Shown in pieces: positions 5,612-10,222 of a stretch of 29,166 nucleotides of DNA; the first letter of the stretch is position 1; every line of letters begins with the position of its first letter. The DNA comes from a virus. Lineage: Duplodnaviria; Caudoviricetes. The position numbers and the translations under genes were made by a program. The notes under the pieces are model-generated. The model saw only the letters and a program-made list of their open reading frames with translations, made no database searches and had not been told where the DNA came from. Where the stretch lies: IMG/VR virus record IMGVR_UViG_3300020227_000120, positions 1-29,166 of that record. The stretch is one strand, 5' to 3'.

Positions 5612-5845
5612 CTATCCACCGAATAGTTTGATTAAGTCCTTACCTTTAATAACTTCTTGTTCTTTTTTAGATTTGTTTTTTTGTTTATCTTGGTTATCAT
5701 TGCCAGTTAGAAACGCAAATAATTCTAAGTAAGGTTGTTCTTTAACTTCTGTTAAAGTCCAGCCAAAGTTTTTCATACAAAATTCATAAGCCTTTCTAAA
5801 CCAGGATAAAATTTCTTTTATTGAGCTTGTTCTTCTGTCTTTCCC
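5612..5845 (-). CDS. Tail assembly chaperone gpT-like segment, expressed as a G-T fusion by -1 frameshift
   Basis: The -1 frame from slippery G GGA AAG (5839-5845) is open to TAG at 5612-5614: GKDRRTSSIKEILSWFRKAYEFCMKNFGWTLTEVKEQPYLELF...LFGG. It lies directly before the TMP gene. Confidence 0.88.
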   Translation of the reverse strand, partial: GKDRRTSSIKEILSWFRKAYEFCMKNFGWTLTEVKEQPYLELFAFLTGNDNQDKQKNKSKKEQEVIKGKDLIKLFGG

Positions 5846-6168
5846 TCTTGGCTTGTTTCATCTTCTGAATCTGCTTCATCTTCGCCGCTGATTTCTCGAA
5901 ATATTTCACCTAATACATGAGAATATGTTTTTGTACCCATGTTGTTTAAAACGTCCTCCTCTGTTAATCCTTGTTTTTCAAACAAACTAACTAAGTAATC
6001 ACGTTCCATTTTTCTCACTTTTTTCATATCCGGTTTTTCTTTATTCACTTCTTTTTCGCGGATTTCCATCCATTCATAAAAACGCTCTGCTTCTCCCATC
6101 GTAATAACGTCTTTGGAATAGCTTTCTACTTTACCTGTTTCTTGGTTTTTAATTTCAAATTTGATCAT
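5818..6168 (-). CDS. Tail assembly chaperone (gpG-like)
   Basis: 116 aa, AGGAG RBS, located between the tail tube genes and TMP; ends ...EGKTEEQAQ and contains the lambda-type GGGAAAG slippery site. Confidence 0.88.
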   Translation of the reverse strand: MIKFEIKNQETGKVESYSKDVITMGEAERFYEWMEIREKEVNKEKPDMKKVRKMERDYLVSLFEKQGLTEEDVLNNMGTKTYSHVLGEIFREISGEDEADSEDETSQEGKTEEQAQ

Positions 6169-6202
6169 GTTATTGTCTCCTTAAAGTTAATTATTTTTGT
6201 AT

Positions 6203-6228
6203 ACAAAAATAGGCGACCGAAGTCGCCT
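6203..6228 (-). terminator. Rho-independent terminator after the Ig-like tail gene
   Basis: On the - strand: AGGCGAC-TTCG-GTCGCCT hairpin (cUUCGg tetraloop) followed by ATTTTTGT. Confidence 0.8.
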
Positions 6229-6243
6229 TGTTTATTCATTTAT

Positions 6244-6774
6244 TTATTCTGCTGATACATCTGCATCGTTTTCATTTGCTTCTACTTCTACATTATCGGG
6301 TTCTTCTGGTGCAGGTTCTTCTTCAGTTTCTACTGTGACGGCACATGTCGCTTTTTTATTGCCATCCTCGGTAGTAACTTCAATGTTAGCAGTACCATCT
6401 GCAATCGCTGTAATTGTACCGTCTTCATTTACTGTAGCTACATCTCTATTGGATGATGCATAAGCTACACCTTTATTAGTCGCAGTCGATGGCGCAACCG
6501 TTGGTCGAATGGTTTCTGTATCTCCGACATTTAGCGTTAAACTTTCTTTATCAAGGGAAACACCTGTTACTTTAATTGGATTTGTTTTAAATCCTGGTAC
6601 CTCTGTTTTATCAGATTCGCCGTTATCGTTACTAAAAGCAGCTTGATACGTGCCTGCTTCATATTCTGTGTCTGCGTCCAGACCTTCAATCGTAACGTTA
6701 GCCTTGCCATCTTCACCACGTTCAGCACTTGCGACTACTTCATCATCTTTATAAATTTTTAAAATATCTGCCAT
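6244..6774 (-). CDS. Ig-like (Big_2) virion decoration protein with an N-terminal partial FN3-like domain and a C-terminal 21-aa motif
   Basis: Own AGGAGG RBS. Central VTGVSLDKESLTLNVGDTETI...VAYASSNRDVATVNEDGTITAIADGTANIEVTTEDGNKKATCAVTV is a typical Big_2 pattern. N-terminal VTIEGLDADTEY...NGES is FN3-like. Confidence 0.88.
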   Translation of the reverse strand: MADILKIYKDDEVVASAERGEDGKANVTIEGLDADTEYEAGTYQAAFSNDNGESDKTEVPGFKTNPIKVTGVSLDKESLTLNVGDTETIRPTVAPSTATNKGVAYASSNRDVATVNEDGTITAIADGTANIEVTTEDGNKKATCAVTVETEEEPAPEEPDNVEVEANENDADVSAE

Positions 6775-6808
6775 TTAATAGCCTCCTAGTAATTTAATAT
6801 AAAAACCC

Positions 6809-6875
6809 CTATTCTGCAGAAATAACAGCCGACTTACTTTTAGCTGTTACTCCTACATTTTGGGGCGCCTTAGGG
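6809..6875 (-). other. Predicted +1 frameshift site (CCC-TAA, 6870-6875) and 21-codon C-terminal extension of the major tail protein
   Basis: ACA CCC TAA G; the +1 frame reads PKAPQNVGVTAKSKSAVISAE then TAG (6809-6811). Confidence 0.8.
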
Positions 6876-7502
6876 TGTTTCTGTTGCTTCGTTATCGTTT
6901 GAATCTTCATTACTATTGTCCGAATCATCATCTTTAACGTCTTCATAACCAGGGAACACACTTTTGAATAATTCATCTGCGCCTTTTTTACCAACGTGGT
7001 AACCATAAATACGTGAATTACCGTCGATTGTGCGCGCAATCCAATCACCTGTGAGTTGTTGTGGTTCTGGCTCTTCTTCTTCTTTCGCCGTTGTTTTCCA
7101 TTCGATTGATTCAAGGCTCATTGTCCCTTTAGTTAACGCACAATAAACAGGGTCACCTGATAGTAAATCGGCAGACTCTCCAATTAATGCGACATACGGC
7201 GCACGAGAATCTTCACCAACCCATGAAGTACCGTTATCATCCATATCACGACCTAAAACGGCGTCTAAATCTTTATCTGGCACGTTAAATAAATCAAGTT
7301 CTGATTGAACTTCGCCTGTTCCTTGTTTCTTAGACCATACGGTCTTATTTGAAGCACGCATTTCAACTTTTTCAGGGGCTAATCCTGAAATATTAAGATT
7401 AACTGTACCACCGTGTTCATCTTTCCATGTCATTAATTTCTTAATTTTTTCATCTTCATCAAAAATACCTACGTGTACTTTTTCAAATCCTACTACTGCC
7501 AT
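6870..7502 (-). CDS. Major tail (tube) protein, phi13/phiSLT-like family
   Basis: 210 aa, MAVVGFEKVHVGIFD...; AGGAGG RBS; follows the neck genes; acidic low-complexity C-terminal linker. Confidence 0.92.
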   Translation of the reverse strand: MAVVGFEKVHVGIFDEDEKIKKLMTWKDEHGGTVNLNISGLAPEKVEMRASNKTVWSKKQGTGEVQSELDLFNVPDKDLDAVLGRDMDDNGTSWVGEDSRAPYVALIGESADLLSGDPVYCALTKGTMSLESIEWKTTAKEEEEPEPQQLTGDWIARTIDGNSRIYGYHVGKKGADELFKSVFPGYEDVKDDDSDNSNEDSNDNEATETP

Positions 7503-7535
7503 AATTTTTTCCTCCTTGAATTAAAAAGAACGCAT

Positions 7536-7931
7536 CTATTCGACACGTTCACCTTTGTAATATTGATTTTTAGGTATGCCACGATATCTTCGTGACATCA
7601 CATACCTTTGTGTTGATTTAAAATAGTCATCTAATTGTGATGATGCTTGATTTAAATTTTCATTTGATAGTAAATAACGAATCCGTTTGGTTATGTCTAT
7701 CGTTTGTTGATGATTATAGGCTTCAACATCGACTTGAAAAAAATAAGTTTCCGATAGATATTTATCAGAAACATATGTGCTCGGGCGATCTAATATCGGG
7801 GTTAAAACGACAAACGCATCACTCGTATCATCCACTTCTGTTACTTCGTAATAATAAATGCGGTTGTTTACTTCTGATGCAAGTATAGGGTCGTTAATAA
7901 TGATATTCTTAATATAATTGAGTATATTCAC
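7536..7931 (-). CDS. Putative tail terminator / tail completion protein
   Basis: 131 aa, last neck gene before the major tail gene; FQVDVEA strand pattern. Confidence 0.7.
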   Translation of the reverse strand: MNILNYIKNIIINDPILASEVNNRIYYYEVTEVDDTSDAFVVLTPILDRPSTYVSDKYLSETYFFQVDVEAYNHQQTIDITKRIRYLLSNENLNQASSQLDDYFKSTQRYVMSRRYRGIPKNQYYKGERVE

Positions 7932-8353
7932 TTTTTGTTCAACTCTCTTCGAATGATGCCACGGTATTTGGTTTGTGATGCATCTAATGTTTTGGCAATG
8001 ACACCGTAACCTTGAGGTGTATACTTTTTACCATTACGTGTATAGCCATGTTCATTAAGATGAATGATATTTTTTCTTTCCTTAGGGCCTTCCCAATGAA
8101 TCATAATCCGTCTTTGACCAGCAACCGTTTCAGGATTACCTCGTTTCATTTCTTGTATGGTCGCCCCTGTATCTTTAAAATCTTCAAATTGATGTTTCAA
8201 CTCTTGTTTTAAAAATTCAGATGCTTCAATTAAAGCTTTATCATTCTTTGTTTGCATCGCTTTTTCACCAAATTTTGCTTCCATCTTTTTCATTATCTCT
8301 TTTTCACCTTCAAGCTTTATATCGTATATACCATTAATTTTAGGTTTGCTCAT
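7928..8353 (-). CDS. HK97 gp10-like neck protein
   Basis: 141 aa; DTG and HLNEHGYTR motifs; position in the neck module. Confidence 0.7.
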   Translation of the reverse strand: MSKPKINGIYDIKLEGEKEIMKKMEAKFGEKAMQTKNDKALIEASEFLKQELKHQFEDFKDTGATIQEMKRGNPETVAGQRRIMIHWEGPKERKNIIHLNEHGYTRNGKKYTPQGYGVIAKTLDASQTKYRGIIRRELNKK

Positions 8354-8681
8354 TTTCAGCTACCACCACCGTAATATAACCTGCTTTTGGTTTATCAAAT
8401 CGAATGTCGTATATGTTAAATAGTTGTGTTTCAAATCGATAATCTTTCACTTTAATTGTATGTTGATAACTCGGGATAAATTGTCGTTGAGCGTCTCTCA
8501 TTATAAATGTAAAACCTTGGGTTTTACCGTTTGTCGTTAGAACTTGTCTGTCTTTAATGGAATTATCATATTTTTCAACTTTACAACTATAAACCTCTTT
8601 TTCTTCTAAATCATCTGGGTAAGGGCCTGTTTTAACCATGTCATAAAAAGTTAAGTACGTATTAAAGTTTTTAAATTGCAC
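8340..8681 (-). CDS. Head closure / head-tail adaptor (SPP1 gp16-like)
   Basis: 113 aa, GTG start, second neck gene, beta-rich pattern. Confidence 0.7.
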   Translation of the reverse strand: MQFKNFNTYLTFYDMVKTGPYPDDLEEKEVYSCKVEKYDNSIKDRQVLTTNGKTQGFTFIMRDAQRQFIPSYQHTIKVKDYRFETQLFNIYDIRFDKPKAGYITVVVAENEQT

Positions 8682-8686
8682 TTAAA

Positions 8687-8974
8687 TCACCAAACTTTCA
8701 ACTTAAGAATAAATGATTGTAAGGTTCTGTCATTAAATCCTTTATTATCGCGTTCATACTCAACAAAGCCACGAGTCTCATAATCACGCGAAACAATATA
8801 ATTAATCGCTTGGCAATATAAAGGATATGCCTCATCACTATGATCGTACTGAGGCACACCACTTAAACTTAATTCAGACTTAGCGCTTAGAATCATATCT
8901 TCTAACGTATCATTTTCGATGTCATAATCTATGTTTAACCATCTTTTGATGCGTAATAATTCATTTTGATTCAT
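8687..8974 (-). CDS. Head-tail connector (HK97 gp6-like)
   Basis: IKRWLNIDYDIENDTLEDMILSAK...YETR pattern. The ATG at 8974 follows a GGGGTGG RBS; the track's start at 8983 lies inside that RBS. Confidence 0.85.
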   Translation of the reverse strand: MNQNELLRIKRWLNIDYDIENDTLEDMILSAKSELSLSGVPQYDHSDEAYPLYCQAINYIVSRDYETRGFVEYERDNKGFNDRTLQSFILKLKVW

Positions 8975-8985
8975 CAAAACCACCC

Positions 8986-9052
8986 CTATTCAGCAGAAAT
9001 AGAGACGGATTTTGCTCTCGTCTCTACTTCTACCTTTTGGGGCTTGTTAGGG
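8986..9052 (-). other. Predicted +1 frameshift site (CCC-TAA, 9047-9052) and 21-codon C-terminal extension of the major capsid protein
   Basis: ACA CCC TAA C; the +1 frame reads PNKPQKVEVETRAKSVSISAE then TAG (8986-8988). Confidence 0.8.
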
Positions 9053-10222
9053 TGTATTCGTGTCTTCAGAACCACCATCAACTTTAGCGATACGGAACGC
9101 ACTATCTAATGTACGTTGTTGGTCATACCAAGCAGTTAAGACGAATAAGTATTCACCTTTTTTAACATCTTTGTCCGTATCAAATGTCGTATTATCATAG
9201 TTAATGCCGAAGTAATTGAAATCACCCACGACTGGGTTAACTGCGCTATCTGTAAACACGACAGGTTTACCAAACACTTTTTCAGCTGGTGTGTCGAAGA
9301 AATTTGTTGTGCCATTTGATAAGATTTTGATAATTTTTACATAATCAATATATCTCATATAGATTGTAGCGTTACTGCGATAATCTTCATGTAAGTCAGC
9401 AATTGCATTAACAATAGCTTCGTATATATCTTCACCAGGCACTTCTTTCACGCCCGTATTATAGAATGACATGTGTTCGATACTATTTTTAGGACTTAGG
9501 GCAAAGGCATCTTTACGTTCTTTGTCAGCTAATCCTGAACGTAACGCATTTTCTACCCAATTAACTAAATCGATATCTGAGCCATGAATAACGGTATCTG
9601 AAACAGCAGCAAAGACTTTAAATTTATGTGGGCTAAATTTCACTGTATCGCCTTTTAACGCCATTTCTTTGGCAGTTTCTTCATCTGTAATAAATTCATC
9701 ATCATCTAACGTATATGAAATACGTGGGATTTCTAATCCTTTAATGTTAGTTAAACGTGCTTTTTCACGTAATTGGTTACGCGCAAATGGTTCAGAGACT
9801 AATTCATTAGACAATGTCGTTGGTAAGAATTTGTCTCCACCTGTATCATTACCTGTCGGTAAAGCATGTAATAAACGTTGTGCTTCTTGAGATGGTTTTT
9901 CAAAGTCATTTGGTAATAAAGCATGACGATAAAACTCAGCTTTTGCTTTAACTTTTTTATCATCTTCACTTAAGGTTTGATAAACTGAAGTTTTTTCCAT
10001 ATCTTTTTGTGCTTTTTCTGACTGTTTTTGTTGCACCTCATCTTTACGTTTCTCAAGAATATCGTATCTTTGTTGTAGAATACCTACGTCTTTTTCTAAT
10101 TGTTTGATATGTTCAAACTCCACATTTGGGTCACCAGCTTTTTGAGATAACTCGTTATTTTTATTTTTTAATTGTTCTCCTACTTCTCCTAGAGATTGTT
10201 TTAACTCGTATAATGTAGACAT
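9047..10222 (-). CDS. Major capsid protein, HK97 fold with N-terminal delta (scaffold) domain
   Basis: 391 aa; coiled-coil N-terminus; GGDKFLP motif; follows the protease; resembles phi12/phiSLT-type capsids. Confidence 0.95.
   Translation of the reverse strand: MSTLYELKQSLGEVGEQLKNKNNELSQKAGDPNVEFEHIKQLEKDVGILQQRYDILEKRKDEVQQKQSEKAQKDMEKTSVYQTLSEDDKKVKAKAEFYRHALLPNDFEKPSQEAQRLLHALPTGNDTGGDKFLPTTLSNELVSEPFARNQLREKARLTNIKGLEIPRISYTLDDDEFITDEETAKEMALKGDTVKFSPHKFKVFAAVSDTVIHGSDIDLVNWVENALRSGLADKERKDAFALSPKNSIEHMSFYNTGVKEVPGEDIYEAIVNAIADLHEDYRSNATIYMRYIDYVKIIKILSNGTTNFFDTPAEKVFGKPVVFTDSAVNPVVGDFNYFGINYDNTTFDTDKDVKKGEYLFVLTAWYDQQRTLDSAFRIAKVDGGSEDTNTP

Follow-up and report, generated by a model that had tools for sequence, protein, structure and literature searches.

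Programmed frameshifts reportedly occur in both the capsid and tail genes of Listeria phages PSA, A118 and A500, and the extensions made in these phages and in Lactobacillus phage A2 are regarded as covalent Ig-like or unexplained tails. For A2, paired capsid and tail gene frameshifts are mentioned in a paper that cites the original work (cited in PMC7260188). Two reports on phage SPP1 describe a tail-tube gene, gp17.1, that ends in CCCUAA, where slippage from the rare CCC to CCU yields gp17.1*, a non-essential FN3-type extension carried by a fraction of the subunits at 3:1 (PMC6316719, PMC8718954). In the lactococcal 936 group, a tail-gene frameshift adds the BppA-like carbohydrate-binding extension of TpeX (PMC6669499). 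Split-FN3 docking is known from Lactococcus phage Tuc2009, where a C-terminal 25-residue β-hairpin of BppU completes domain 2 of BppA (PDB 5E7T; PMC4742702).

The system described here joins these two known devices, programmed frameshifting and split-FN3 docking, in a 29,166-nt stretch of DNA from a staphylococcal phage of the Caudoviricetes (IMG/VR record IMGVR_UViG_3300020227_000120; the window). The same CCCUAA signal ends the tail-tube gene as in SPP1, both major structural genes would carry a 3′-terminal programmed frameshift giving minor extended forms as in A2 and the Listeria phages, and a C-terminal hairpin would complete the half-domain of a second protein and so attach an accessory adhesin as in Tuc2009. 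The differences are these: the SPP1 extension is a whole FN3 domain of 87 residues, covalent and on the tail only, whereas here 21 residues follow both capsid and tail proteins and the remainder lies on another gene; the TpeX extension is covalent, hundreds of residues long and lacks the separate acceptor found here; and the Tuc2009 donor is encoded in frame on a baseplate protein and retains the strand-B Trp, whereas here the donors are the major capsid and tail-tube genes, read in +1, with Ala for Trp. The BppA acceptor is also C-terminal, behind a carbohydrate-binding module, while the present one is N-terminal, before a Big_2 domain, and its protein carries another tag at the C-terminus; any baseplate genes of this phage fall outside the window. 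The first-pass annotation, made from the letters alone, knew of no description of such docking; the Tuc2009 hairpin provides one (PMC4742702). Split-FN3 docking is thus already known. No account was found of a frameshift bringing it to the major proteins of capsid and tail tube: the literature searched, in which subscription papers were thinly represented, yielded nothing on docking tags made by frameshifting, and in the main text of two phage 812 structure papers the terms Ig-like, immunoglobulin and fibronectin do not appear.

We propose that some ribosomes slip +1 at the CCC codon with which the capsid and tail-tube genes end, so that a 21-residue tag would be added to some of the subunits in head and tail. 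The tag, modelled as FN3 strands A-B, would complete a half-FN3 at the start of the Ig protein, whereby a single Big_2 adhesin would become attached to some subunits of both structures. An RNA stem-loop 6 nt behind the CCC probably stimulates the slip, whose frequency would fix the density of decoration, and the Big_2 domain may aid reversible adhesion, as put forward for gp17.1* of SPP1. Slip sites, tags, acceptor, conservation and co-occurrence are all present in the sequence, while the composite FN3 fold and the tag/acceptor interface are predicted. The whole reading, in which slip-made tags dock a separately translated Ig protein on both head and tail, is given a probability of about 0.8. 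The first-pass annotation had assigned strands A-B to the tags and strands C-G to Ig residues 1-64; homology, natural fusions, co-occurrence and complex prediction now speak for this arrangement, in which the frameshifting and the binding are putative.

Slip sites and tags in the window

The window contains the motif ACACCCTAA at exactly two places, the stops of the capsid and tail-tube genes (Table 1). The capsid +1 frame reads PNKPQKVEVETRAKSVSISAE-stop, the tail-tube +1 frame PKAPQNVGVTAKSKSAVISAE-stop, and the Ig gene ends in frame with PEEPDNVEVEANENDADVSAE-stop. When scored against a profile of related tags (65 of 96, those at least 70% identical to the window's being excluded), the three 21-mers reach 49.6-51.9, against 6.6 for the next best match elsewhere in six frames and 8.5 for the best in 30 triplet-shuffled windows, which bears out the earlier claim that two genes ending in ACA-CCC-TAA encode related +1 peptides matching the Ig end. 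CCC makes up one of 14 Pro codons in the capsid gene and one of eight in the tail gene, in each case the last codon. As in the SPP1 signal, a rare CCC lies directly 5′ of the stop and overlaps CCU in +1; the +1 frames close after 21 codons and append no whole covalent Ig/FN3 domain of the SPP1 type. The frameshifted lengths given earlier, 411 aa for the capsid and 230 aa for the tail-tube protein, are confirmed from the sequence, as is the observation that the tail tag stop is out of frame with the Ig gene, whose ATG follows after 34 nt and has its own RBS.

An opposition of basic tags and acidic acceptor, also part of the first reading, holds weakly in the window (by sequence count, net charges of +1 and +2 for the two +1 tags against -10 for the acceptor) and fails as a general rule, with a mean of +0.02 (range -5 to +6) over 64 distinct +1 tags. 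The Ig protein's own tag carries -9, and every one of the 22 distinct tags borne by acceptor proteins has a negative net charge (-3 to -10). Contigs of all four runs span the stretch, three of them in one piece, and the single indel listed among them, 8 nt at 6230-6231, lies outside genes, so that assembly error is ruled out. A count of stop-free tag frames (65/65) was discarded as circular. The capsid gene matches the phi12 capsid 7RWZ at E 1e-199, and promoter counts were at chance level.

Table 1. Genes, slip sites and predicted elements of the locus, in window coordinates
Feature	Position	Strand	Basis
Major capsid protein, 391 aa, phi12-type	9047..10222	-	Pfam PF05065, phrog_10
Capsid slip site ACA CCC TAA	9047..9055	-	+1 frameshift inferred
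Capsid +1-frame tag, 21 codons + TAG	8986..9051	-	Predicted FN3 strands A-B
Capsid RNA stem-loop, predicted, overlaps tag	8982..9043	-	Fold energy and covariation
Major tail (tube) protein, 210 aa	6870..7502	-	Pfam PF04630, phrog_88
Tail-tube slip site ACA CCC TAA	6870..6878	-	+1 frameshift inferred
Tail-tube +1-frame tag, 21 codons + TAG	6809..6874	-	Predicted FN3 strands A-B
Tail RNA stem-loop, predicted, overlaps tag	6805..6866	-	Register equals that of the capsid stem-loop
Ig gene RBS AGGAGG, 7 nt 5′ of ATG	6782..6787	-	Sequence
Ig gene	6244..6774	-	Separate ORF
Acceptor half-domain, Ig residues 1-64	6583..6774	-	Predicted FN3 strands C-G; BppA domain 2 homologue; phrog_341
Big_2 Ig-like domain, residues 69-146, cargo	6337..6570	-	Pfam PF02368, E 1.7e-18
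Acidic in-frame tag, Ig C-terminus, residues 156-176	6244..6309	-	Without RNA stem-loop
Terminator-like hairpin 3′ of Ig gene	6211..6228	.	Matched on both strands

Acceptor half-domain and predicted complex

The FN3 E-F strand motif consists of Leu, Thr and Tyr, and canonical FN3 domains have a conserved Trp in strand B. The acceptor profile aligns to fibronectin E-F strand regions (best E 6e-5) with the strand order C-G and with L32, T36 and Y38 conserved; the tags have Ala or Val at the strand-B Trp position. Pfam fn3 (PF00041) does not match the window's Ig protein, acceptor or tags, and two relatives fall under its curated cut-off (P0021, E 0.065, model 37-76; P0016, E 0.0003, model 2-63). 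The same model is divided between the Tuc2009 partners, positions 2-21 matching BppU and 42-82 matching BppA. Compared directly, the acceptor aligns to BppA domain 2 with an hhalign probability of 92.6% (E 4.6e-7, 54 columns, 35% identity), and because this is the domain completed in 5E7T, the homology supplies a solved precedent for split-FN3 docking. The match to BppA in a whole-PDB search is weak (E 0.17), and sequence searches found no solved structure for the acceptor family. The tag shares 47% identity with the BppU hairpin over 17 columns, which is not significant (hhalign probability 2.7%, E 0.017), and the tag HMM did not score BppU.

In structural comparison the Big_2 domain superposes on 7quz (VIA Z 16.5, rmsd 0.7, 86 aligned). 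Single-sequence AlphaFold2 of the Ig protein gave a pLDDT of 53.5 and no useful fold match; with the good Ig model, Big_2 fills the matches from Foldseek and VIA (PDB) and from BFVD, and 5E7T is absent among the matches listed.

The predicted complex of acceptor and tail tag scores 0.74, against 0.15 for the best of three controls. Of 157 solved complexes 116 attain the mark, as do 2 of 215 mismatched pairs; these counts are rough, own alignments having been used. The partner comprised 31 residues, ten of them non-native +1-frame residues, with a pLDDT of at least 75 and a contact agreement between runs of at least 97%. The tag segment S-A-V-I-S-A is predicted to pair antiparallel with acceptor residues 25-29, like FN3 strands B and E, and the contacts as a whole fit B-E and A-G pairing. 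The complex prediction, suggested earlier as a check, comes out in favour of docking in both score and contacts, and the score may stem from likeness to solved FN3 domains and to 5E7T.

Tags and acceptors among relatives

A census of loci L001-L121 and the window, with redundant loci counted, gave 187 tag calls in +1, 12 in -1 (Lactobacillus phages) and in-frame calls on acceptor proteins (49) and other proteins (11), with ten calls unassigned. CCC stands at the slip position in all 194 +1-type junctions counted, and the conservation of the +1 frame on which the first reading had been staked is upheld. The encoding of one peptide in three ways (+1, -1 and in frame) indicates a function at the protein level. 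Several families of capsid protein (hosts of about 290-450 aa) and of tail protein are followed by tags. In the whole records searched (5/5), the tags are confined to capsid, tail-tube and acceptor ends, except in the Kayvirus record, where they occur at an anchor protein, an acceptor and the sheath; one extra weak match (E 0.016) was obtained.

A survey for co-occurrence of tag and acceptor had been suggested in the first-pass annotation, and the two do occur together: selection by tail-tube similarity gave 80 loci, of which 20 have both, 59 have neither and one carries a tag but lies on a contig with a chimeric upstream part. The tail query for this sample was seeded with tag-positive proteins; the tag profile had already drawn on 8 of the 20 positive contigs, and 4 of the 59 negatives are contigs without the upstream DNA where an acceptor would sit. 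The tree requires four changes, at least three of them forced by starred branches. No anchor tag was found near the acceptor loci SEP1 gp164 and Ph15 CDS64.

The acceptor matches 512 phage records, 502 of them named Staphylococcus phage, including Triavirus, Kayvirus and Silviavirus; a Latilactobacillus acceptor compared with genome contigs gave no relatives among 296 candidates. In a survey of 165 proteins, 124 passed the filter, and in 112 of these the acceptor begins no more than 12 residues from the N-terminus. Internal acceptors may come after a tag-like segment, as in the natural fusions P0115, P0162 and P0081, and P0050 and P0054 have the order half, whole, half. The cargo varies between Big_2, G5, GDSL hydrolase and Thr-rich stalks. 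If the docking reading is correct, the second 'major tail protein' genes of staphylococcal phages, of which there are hundreds, would encode a plug-in surface protein, and the capsid and tail genes would yield unannotated minor products. It would also account for the arrival on head and tail alike of an accessory protein that has no domain for binding capsid or tube, and for the exchange of cargo domains between unrelated virion architectures; tag and acceptor would then form a natural peptide-tag/catcher pair.

The presence of both an acceptor and a tag on the Ig protein, the latter a feature whose role the first-pass annotation did not take up, raises the tentative prospect of chains. In chaperone-usher pili, an incomplete β-sandwich is completed by a strand of the neighbouring subunit, and acceptor-plus-tag proteins could chain likewise. 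The Ig protein would then be an FN3-fibre repeat out of register: a frameshift tag would seed pilus-like filaments on capsid and tail, RNA-stimulated slippage would govern their density, the protein's own tag would recruit the next copy, and tag-less acceptors would act as caps. Kayvirus-type phages encode an anchor with tag, an acceptor-Ig-tag protein and an acceptor-only protein in a row. FN3 termini lie at opposite poles, and if this applies here, the 89-aa relatives, in which acceptor and tag are joined by a 4-residue linker, are unlikely to complete themselves because the linker is too short. The pilus strand is, however, a single N-terminal one in an Ig fold, whereas here two C-terminal strands of FN3 are concerned, and no chaperone or usher gene was recognised. 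We regard such filaments as possible but doubtful.

In an alternative reading, the Ig protein would complete its own half-domain and attach by another surface, the tags being made but acting alone or binding another target such as the cell wall or an assembly factor. AlphaFold2 with an alignment is compatible with self-completion, since it folds the own tag of the Ig monomer into two confident strands (pLDDT 82-85; linker 73). Many acceptors, however, have no own tag (phi12 gp38, 42E, 187, SN8), the 70-aa acceptor-only protein of phage Remus is annotated as an MS-confirmed structural protein, and the co-occurrence of tag and acceptor would be left unexplained, which together make this alternative unlikely.

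RNA stem-loop within the +1 tags

The +1 tags also contain a conserved RNA stem-loop that the first-pass annotation had overlooked. The capsid stem-loop begins 6 nt past the CCC codon and has a CCCC/GGGG outer stem. The 66-nt capsid tag folds at -25.6 kcal/mol (z -7.2) and the tail tag at -20.6 kcal/mol (z -3.1), and z is below -2 in 55 of 71 +1-class tags. Among relatives, 81.5% of cells are paired against 67.0% in shuffled sequences (best slid register 55.2%) and covariation is 0.426 against 0.204, a comparison in which kin sequences may beat such shuffles without structure and with which the recoding control concurs: +1 tags (n=70) form 13.2 of 16 pairs against 10.8 ± 0.2 under synonymous recoding, and in-frame tags (n=25) form 9.0 against 8.8. 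The outer CCCC/GGG is found in 61/70 +1 tags and 0/25 in-frame tags. Only in the +1 tags is the stem-loop under selection. Two Rfam matches were at chance level and under gathering scores.

So strong and covarying a hairpin could itself be the conserved element, as an mRNA stabiliser, processing site or attenuator at the end of strongly expressed structural genes, with the +1 peptide made rarely or never. Against this, in-frame copies of the peptide lack the hairpin, copies in -1 frames have another one, and the terminal CCC and the tag disappear along with the acceptor gene. Moreover, differences between close tags (152 pairs) fall mostly at tag-frame third positions (788 vs 260 and 310), partly by selection. 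A role for the RNA without the peptide is accordingly judged quite improbable.

Published phi12 particles

Phage phi12 encodes both tags and the acceptor gp38, which in published particles is a major band with 96% coverage at an apparent 19.9 kDa. A covalent fusion of the Ig protein to tail tube or capsid, by frameshift and then stop read-through or ribosome hopping, which would make a whole FN3 in one chain as with gp17.1* of SPP1, might be suggested by the tag lying directly 5′ of the acceptor gene, with a gap divisible by three in 19 of 43 loci, but it is very improbable given that these gaps range from 8 to 239 nt and are out of frame in the other 24, that 34 nt and an RBS intervene here, that the second tagged gene is about 2 kb from the acceptor gene, and that gp38 runs as its own band. 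The preparations contained procapsids and tails mixed, and the gp38 band is not assignable to heads. No gel band was assigned to the tagged tail form (25.2 kDa), and in the intact-mass spectrum only the untagged forms of capsid (30,374 Da) and tail protein (23,293 Da) are reported, the minor peaks having no assignment. The capsid protein forms two bands at an apparent 29.5 and 32.6 kDa, and the computed masses are 30,375 Da untagged and 32,310 Da tagged. The gap of 3.1 kDa, against 1.9 predicted, could be accounted for by a different N-terminal cut. If docking by slip-made tags is correct, a tagged capsid form perhaps explains this second band of 32.6 kDa in the published particles (PMC8569155).

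Putative frameshift-encoded tags on capsid and tail tube

The head and tail module of this 29,166-base virus record is phi12-like, and Staphylococcus equorum, xylosus and shinii are the sources of the named homologues of its Ig protein. The capsid and tail-tube genes terminate in ACA CCC TAA, a 9-mer with no third copy in the window, and the terminal CCC is the only such codon in either gene (1 of 14 proline codons in the capsid, 1 of 8 in the tail tube). The +1 frames at both stops encode 21-residue peptides (tags) that align without gaps with the in-frame C-terminus of the Ig protein. With a profile of 65 of 96 related tags, those at least 70% identical to the window's being left out, the three window sites score about 50, whereas the next site reaches 6.6 and 30 shuffled windows reach 8.5 at best; the equal-length peptides described in the first-pass annotation are confirmed. 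In 4 of 4 public runs, the contigs over 6200-9100 carry no indel within the genes or tags. Elsewhere in the window, the -1 frame is open from the last codon of a tail chaperone, as expected of a G/GT-type frameshift, and two unannotated genes form a putative accessory cassette.

Features of the window and of surveyed phage loci (L-numbers)
Feature	Position	Strand	Remark
Capsid gene	9047-10222	minus	E 1e-199 to phi12 capsid 7RWZ
Tail-tube gene	6870-7502	minus
Ig gene	6244-6774	minus
Tail chaperones, tape measure		minus	in head and tail module
Tail chaperone, then 54-aa ORF	5612-6168	minus	PF23857
Genes of 149 and 258 aa	26825-28071	plus	between lipoprotein-like gene and integrase
-1 tags, Lactobacillus phages	L030:5841-5906; L034:7900-7962		also in their tail genes
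Capsid tag with extra C	L121:6868-6933
Tail-gene repeat and truncated second acceptor gene, phage IMEP5	L029:3656-6762
Three-gene row	L031:3337-4746; L032:2818-4213; L036:2800-4228		Kayvirus, Silviavirus, Baoshanvirus phages
Sheath segment, phage K	L203:10043-10105		residues about 274-294 (PDB 5li2 277-293)
697-aa Kayvirus protein	L204:329-2422	minus

The search for a tag-like 21-mer ahead of a stop covered acceptor-selected loci plus eleven regions from named phages, and scores across 11,894 segments are bimodal. With redundant loci counted, 187 tags lie in the +1 frame and 12 in -1, and the in-frame tags number 49 on acceptor proteins and 11 on other proteins; 10 are unassigned, of which seven distinct cases prove to be +1 tags with a capsid frame that extends three codons beyond CCC. 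CCC-T or CCC-A stands at all 194 +1-type junctions. The tags are kept in related phages, on hosts spanning several families of capsid and of tail protein. Related tags lie in the -1 frame after both genes in Lactobacillus phages iLp84 and TMW 1.706 P2, phages 187 and SN8 carry the capsid tag in +1 and the tail tag in frame, and the acceptor gene sits behind either the tail or the capsid gene. The Lactobacillus -1 tags follow TCA AAA TAA/TAG with a different hairpin, and the iLp84 acceptor carries a Thr-rich stalk, with an unannotated gene of 292 aa coming next. At one locus an extra C, either a sequencing error or a variant, sets the capsid tag in frame after a TAG stop, unlike its near relatives. 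In IMEP5 the tail gene is duplicated, by either true duplication or an assembly artefact, and the second acceptor gene is truncated.

In both +1 tags of the window a stem of 16 pairs is predicted (z -7.2 and -3.1), which begins 6 nt past CCC and is lengthened by CCCC pairing with GGGG beyond the tag stop; the Ig protein's own tag shows no such stem (z -1.0). Across 65 +1 tags, 81.5% of cells are paired, compared with 67.0% after shuffling; slid registers reach no more than 55.2%. Random synonymous recoding lowers +1 tags from 13.2 to 10.8 +/- 0.2 pairs (n=70) and leaves in-frame tags unaltered (9.0 and 8.8, n=25), and an outer stem occurs in 61 of 70 +1 tags versus 0 of 25 in-frame tags. We infer that the stem-loop is a frameshift stimulator; it may instead stabilise the mRNA.

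Among the best 80 of 218 loci chosen by tail-tube similarity alone, 20 have tags and acceptor, 59 have neither (4 without the upstream DNA), and the remaining one carries a tag but lies on a chimeric contig, with unrelated DNA upstream. The proposed co-occurrence holds in this set; tag-positive proteins seeded its query, and 8 of the 20 positives are contigs already in the tag profile. The tail tree of these loci needs four changes, at least three of them forced. In five whole records, tags are confined to capsid, tail and acceptor ends, except for the Kayvirus record and one weak match; no anchor tag was found near the acceptor loci of SEP1 gp164 and Ph15 CDS64. Tag-less tail proteins of 266-268 aa (L126, L156, L166, L188) end in what resembles, by eye, a fused Ig-type domain, a candidate covalent decoration in place of tag plus acceptor.

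A predicted half-domain acceptor

The N-terminal ~64 residues of the Ig protein, the predicted acceptor, are by profile comparison half an FN3, as had been proposed: they match fibronectin strands E-F (E 6e-5), the match to Tuc2009 BppA is weak (E 0.17), and pairwise hhalign against BppA domain 2 gives 92.6% (E 4.6e-7). According to PMC4742702, one sheet of that domain is completed by a 25-residue C-terminal BppU hairpin, the composite resembling a titin domain. The BppU end covers Pfam fn3 positions 2-21 and BppA 42-82; tags have Ala at BppU's Trp position, and tag-to-BppU similarity is not significant. From 165 proteins (the best 150 of 308 full-library matches plus a further Ig-homologue list), 124 passed the coverage filter, and the acceptor stands at the start of 112 of these. 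In P0115, P0162 and P0081 an internal acceptor is immediately preceded by a tag-like segment, and P0050 and P0054 have the order half, whole, half. Acceptor cargo varies among P0127, P0110, P0073 and P0016, with G5, GDSL hydrolase, FN3 plus Big_2 or tandem FN3-like repeats. Precomputed Pfam lists PF26918 for Ig homologues P0005, P0006, P0010, P0013 and P0015; the local Pfam scan does not.

Modelled with a 61-row alignment, the Ig protein reached pLDDT 92.8, its own tag forming two strands (82-85) behind a linker at 73; without an alignment it did not fold so. The complex of acceptor and tail tag, the latter within a 31-residue partner including 10 residues of non-native +1-frame sequence, scored 0.74 against 0.15 for the best of three controls; 116 of 157 solved complexes attained this mark, as did 2 of 215 mismatched ones, counts that are approximate for the alignments used here. 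No less than 97% of contacts are common to the runs, and the partner's pLDDT is 75 or higher. Of the two tag strands, the second lies antiparallel to acceptor residues 25-29 and the first contacts 60-62. Strands B-E and A-G pair in FN3 folds, and the predicted contacts correspond to these pairings. The score reflects fit rather than binding, because two halves of a familiar fold may pass simply by resembling it.

Probable mechanism and relation to known systems

Taken together, the data favour, with a probability of roughly 80%, a system in which a fraction of ribosomes would slip at the terminal CCC, tagged subunits would be incorporated into head and tail, and the tag would complete the acceptor and thereby display Big_2; stimulation of the slip and adhesion by Big_2 are predicted further steps. 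The proposed docking would resemble BppU/BppA in that a half-domain is completed by a partner's hairpin, but the BppU donor is in frame and in the baseplate, a placement the tags lack. Encoding resembles that of SPP1 gp17.1* (PMC6316719, PMC8718954), where a whole domain is appended, which is not so here, so that neither class applies. The proposed system combines a known kind of docking with a known kind of encoding. The first-pass annotation knew of no description of the mechanism; BppU/BppA (PMC4742702) is a precedent for the docking, and no description of a frameshift-encoded tag joined with split-domain docking was found in the literature searched. In Listeria phages PSA, A118 and A500, capsid and tail genes reportedly both end in programmed frameshifts yielding minor longer products; Fraser 2006 is a further point of comparison.

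The Ig protein's own tag could serve as a weak placeholder within its own chain, or it could offer the next copy a docking site. Chaining of Ig copies through it is suggested by 89-aa relatives with a 4-residue linker and by the three-gene row of Kayvirus-type phages, and seems rather unlikely; many acceptors have no tag of their own. Tags on acceptor proteins are acidic without exception (mean -6.3, n=22) and +1 tags average +0.02 (n=64), so that steering of basic tags to an acidic acceptor, as first suggested, does not generalise. Read-through fusion of the Ig protein to the upstream tagged gene is disfavoured, in agreement with the original view that this is no simple broken fusion, since 8-239 nt separate the tag's stop codon from the start of the acceptor gene, a spacing that is out of frame at 24 of 43 loci.

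Hints from published virions

Phage phi12 has both tags and an acceptor-Big_2 protein, gp38 (16.0 kDa), which in PMC8569155 (section 8) is a major band of procapsid-plus-tail preparations. The same section reports the capsid protein as two bands (29.5 and 32.6 kDa); computed masses are 32,310 Da tagged and 30,375 untagged, a hint that the upper band is the tagged form, although the gap is 3.1 rather than 1.9 kDa. In that section, the reported intact MS peaks are all untagged, with minor peaks unassigned, and none of the bands is attributed to a tail protein with tag. The annotation of phage Remus marks the products of three genes as structural and confirmed by MS, namely the anchor, the acceptor-Ig-tag protein and the acceptor-only protein of 70 aa. 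The three-gene row runs from a 210-216 aa in-frame-tag protein through acceptor-Big_2-tag to an acceptor-only protein of 70-75 aa. The phage K tail sheath contains an internal tag-like segment (profile score 34; E 0.064 versus PDB, 1.5e-4 within one genome), probably within an outer region of the sheath that is poorly resolved, and possibly a docking site on contractile tails. In a further Kayvirus protein, of 697 aa, a divergent acceptor lies at the start, ahead of collagen-like repeats and then an enzyme-like domain.
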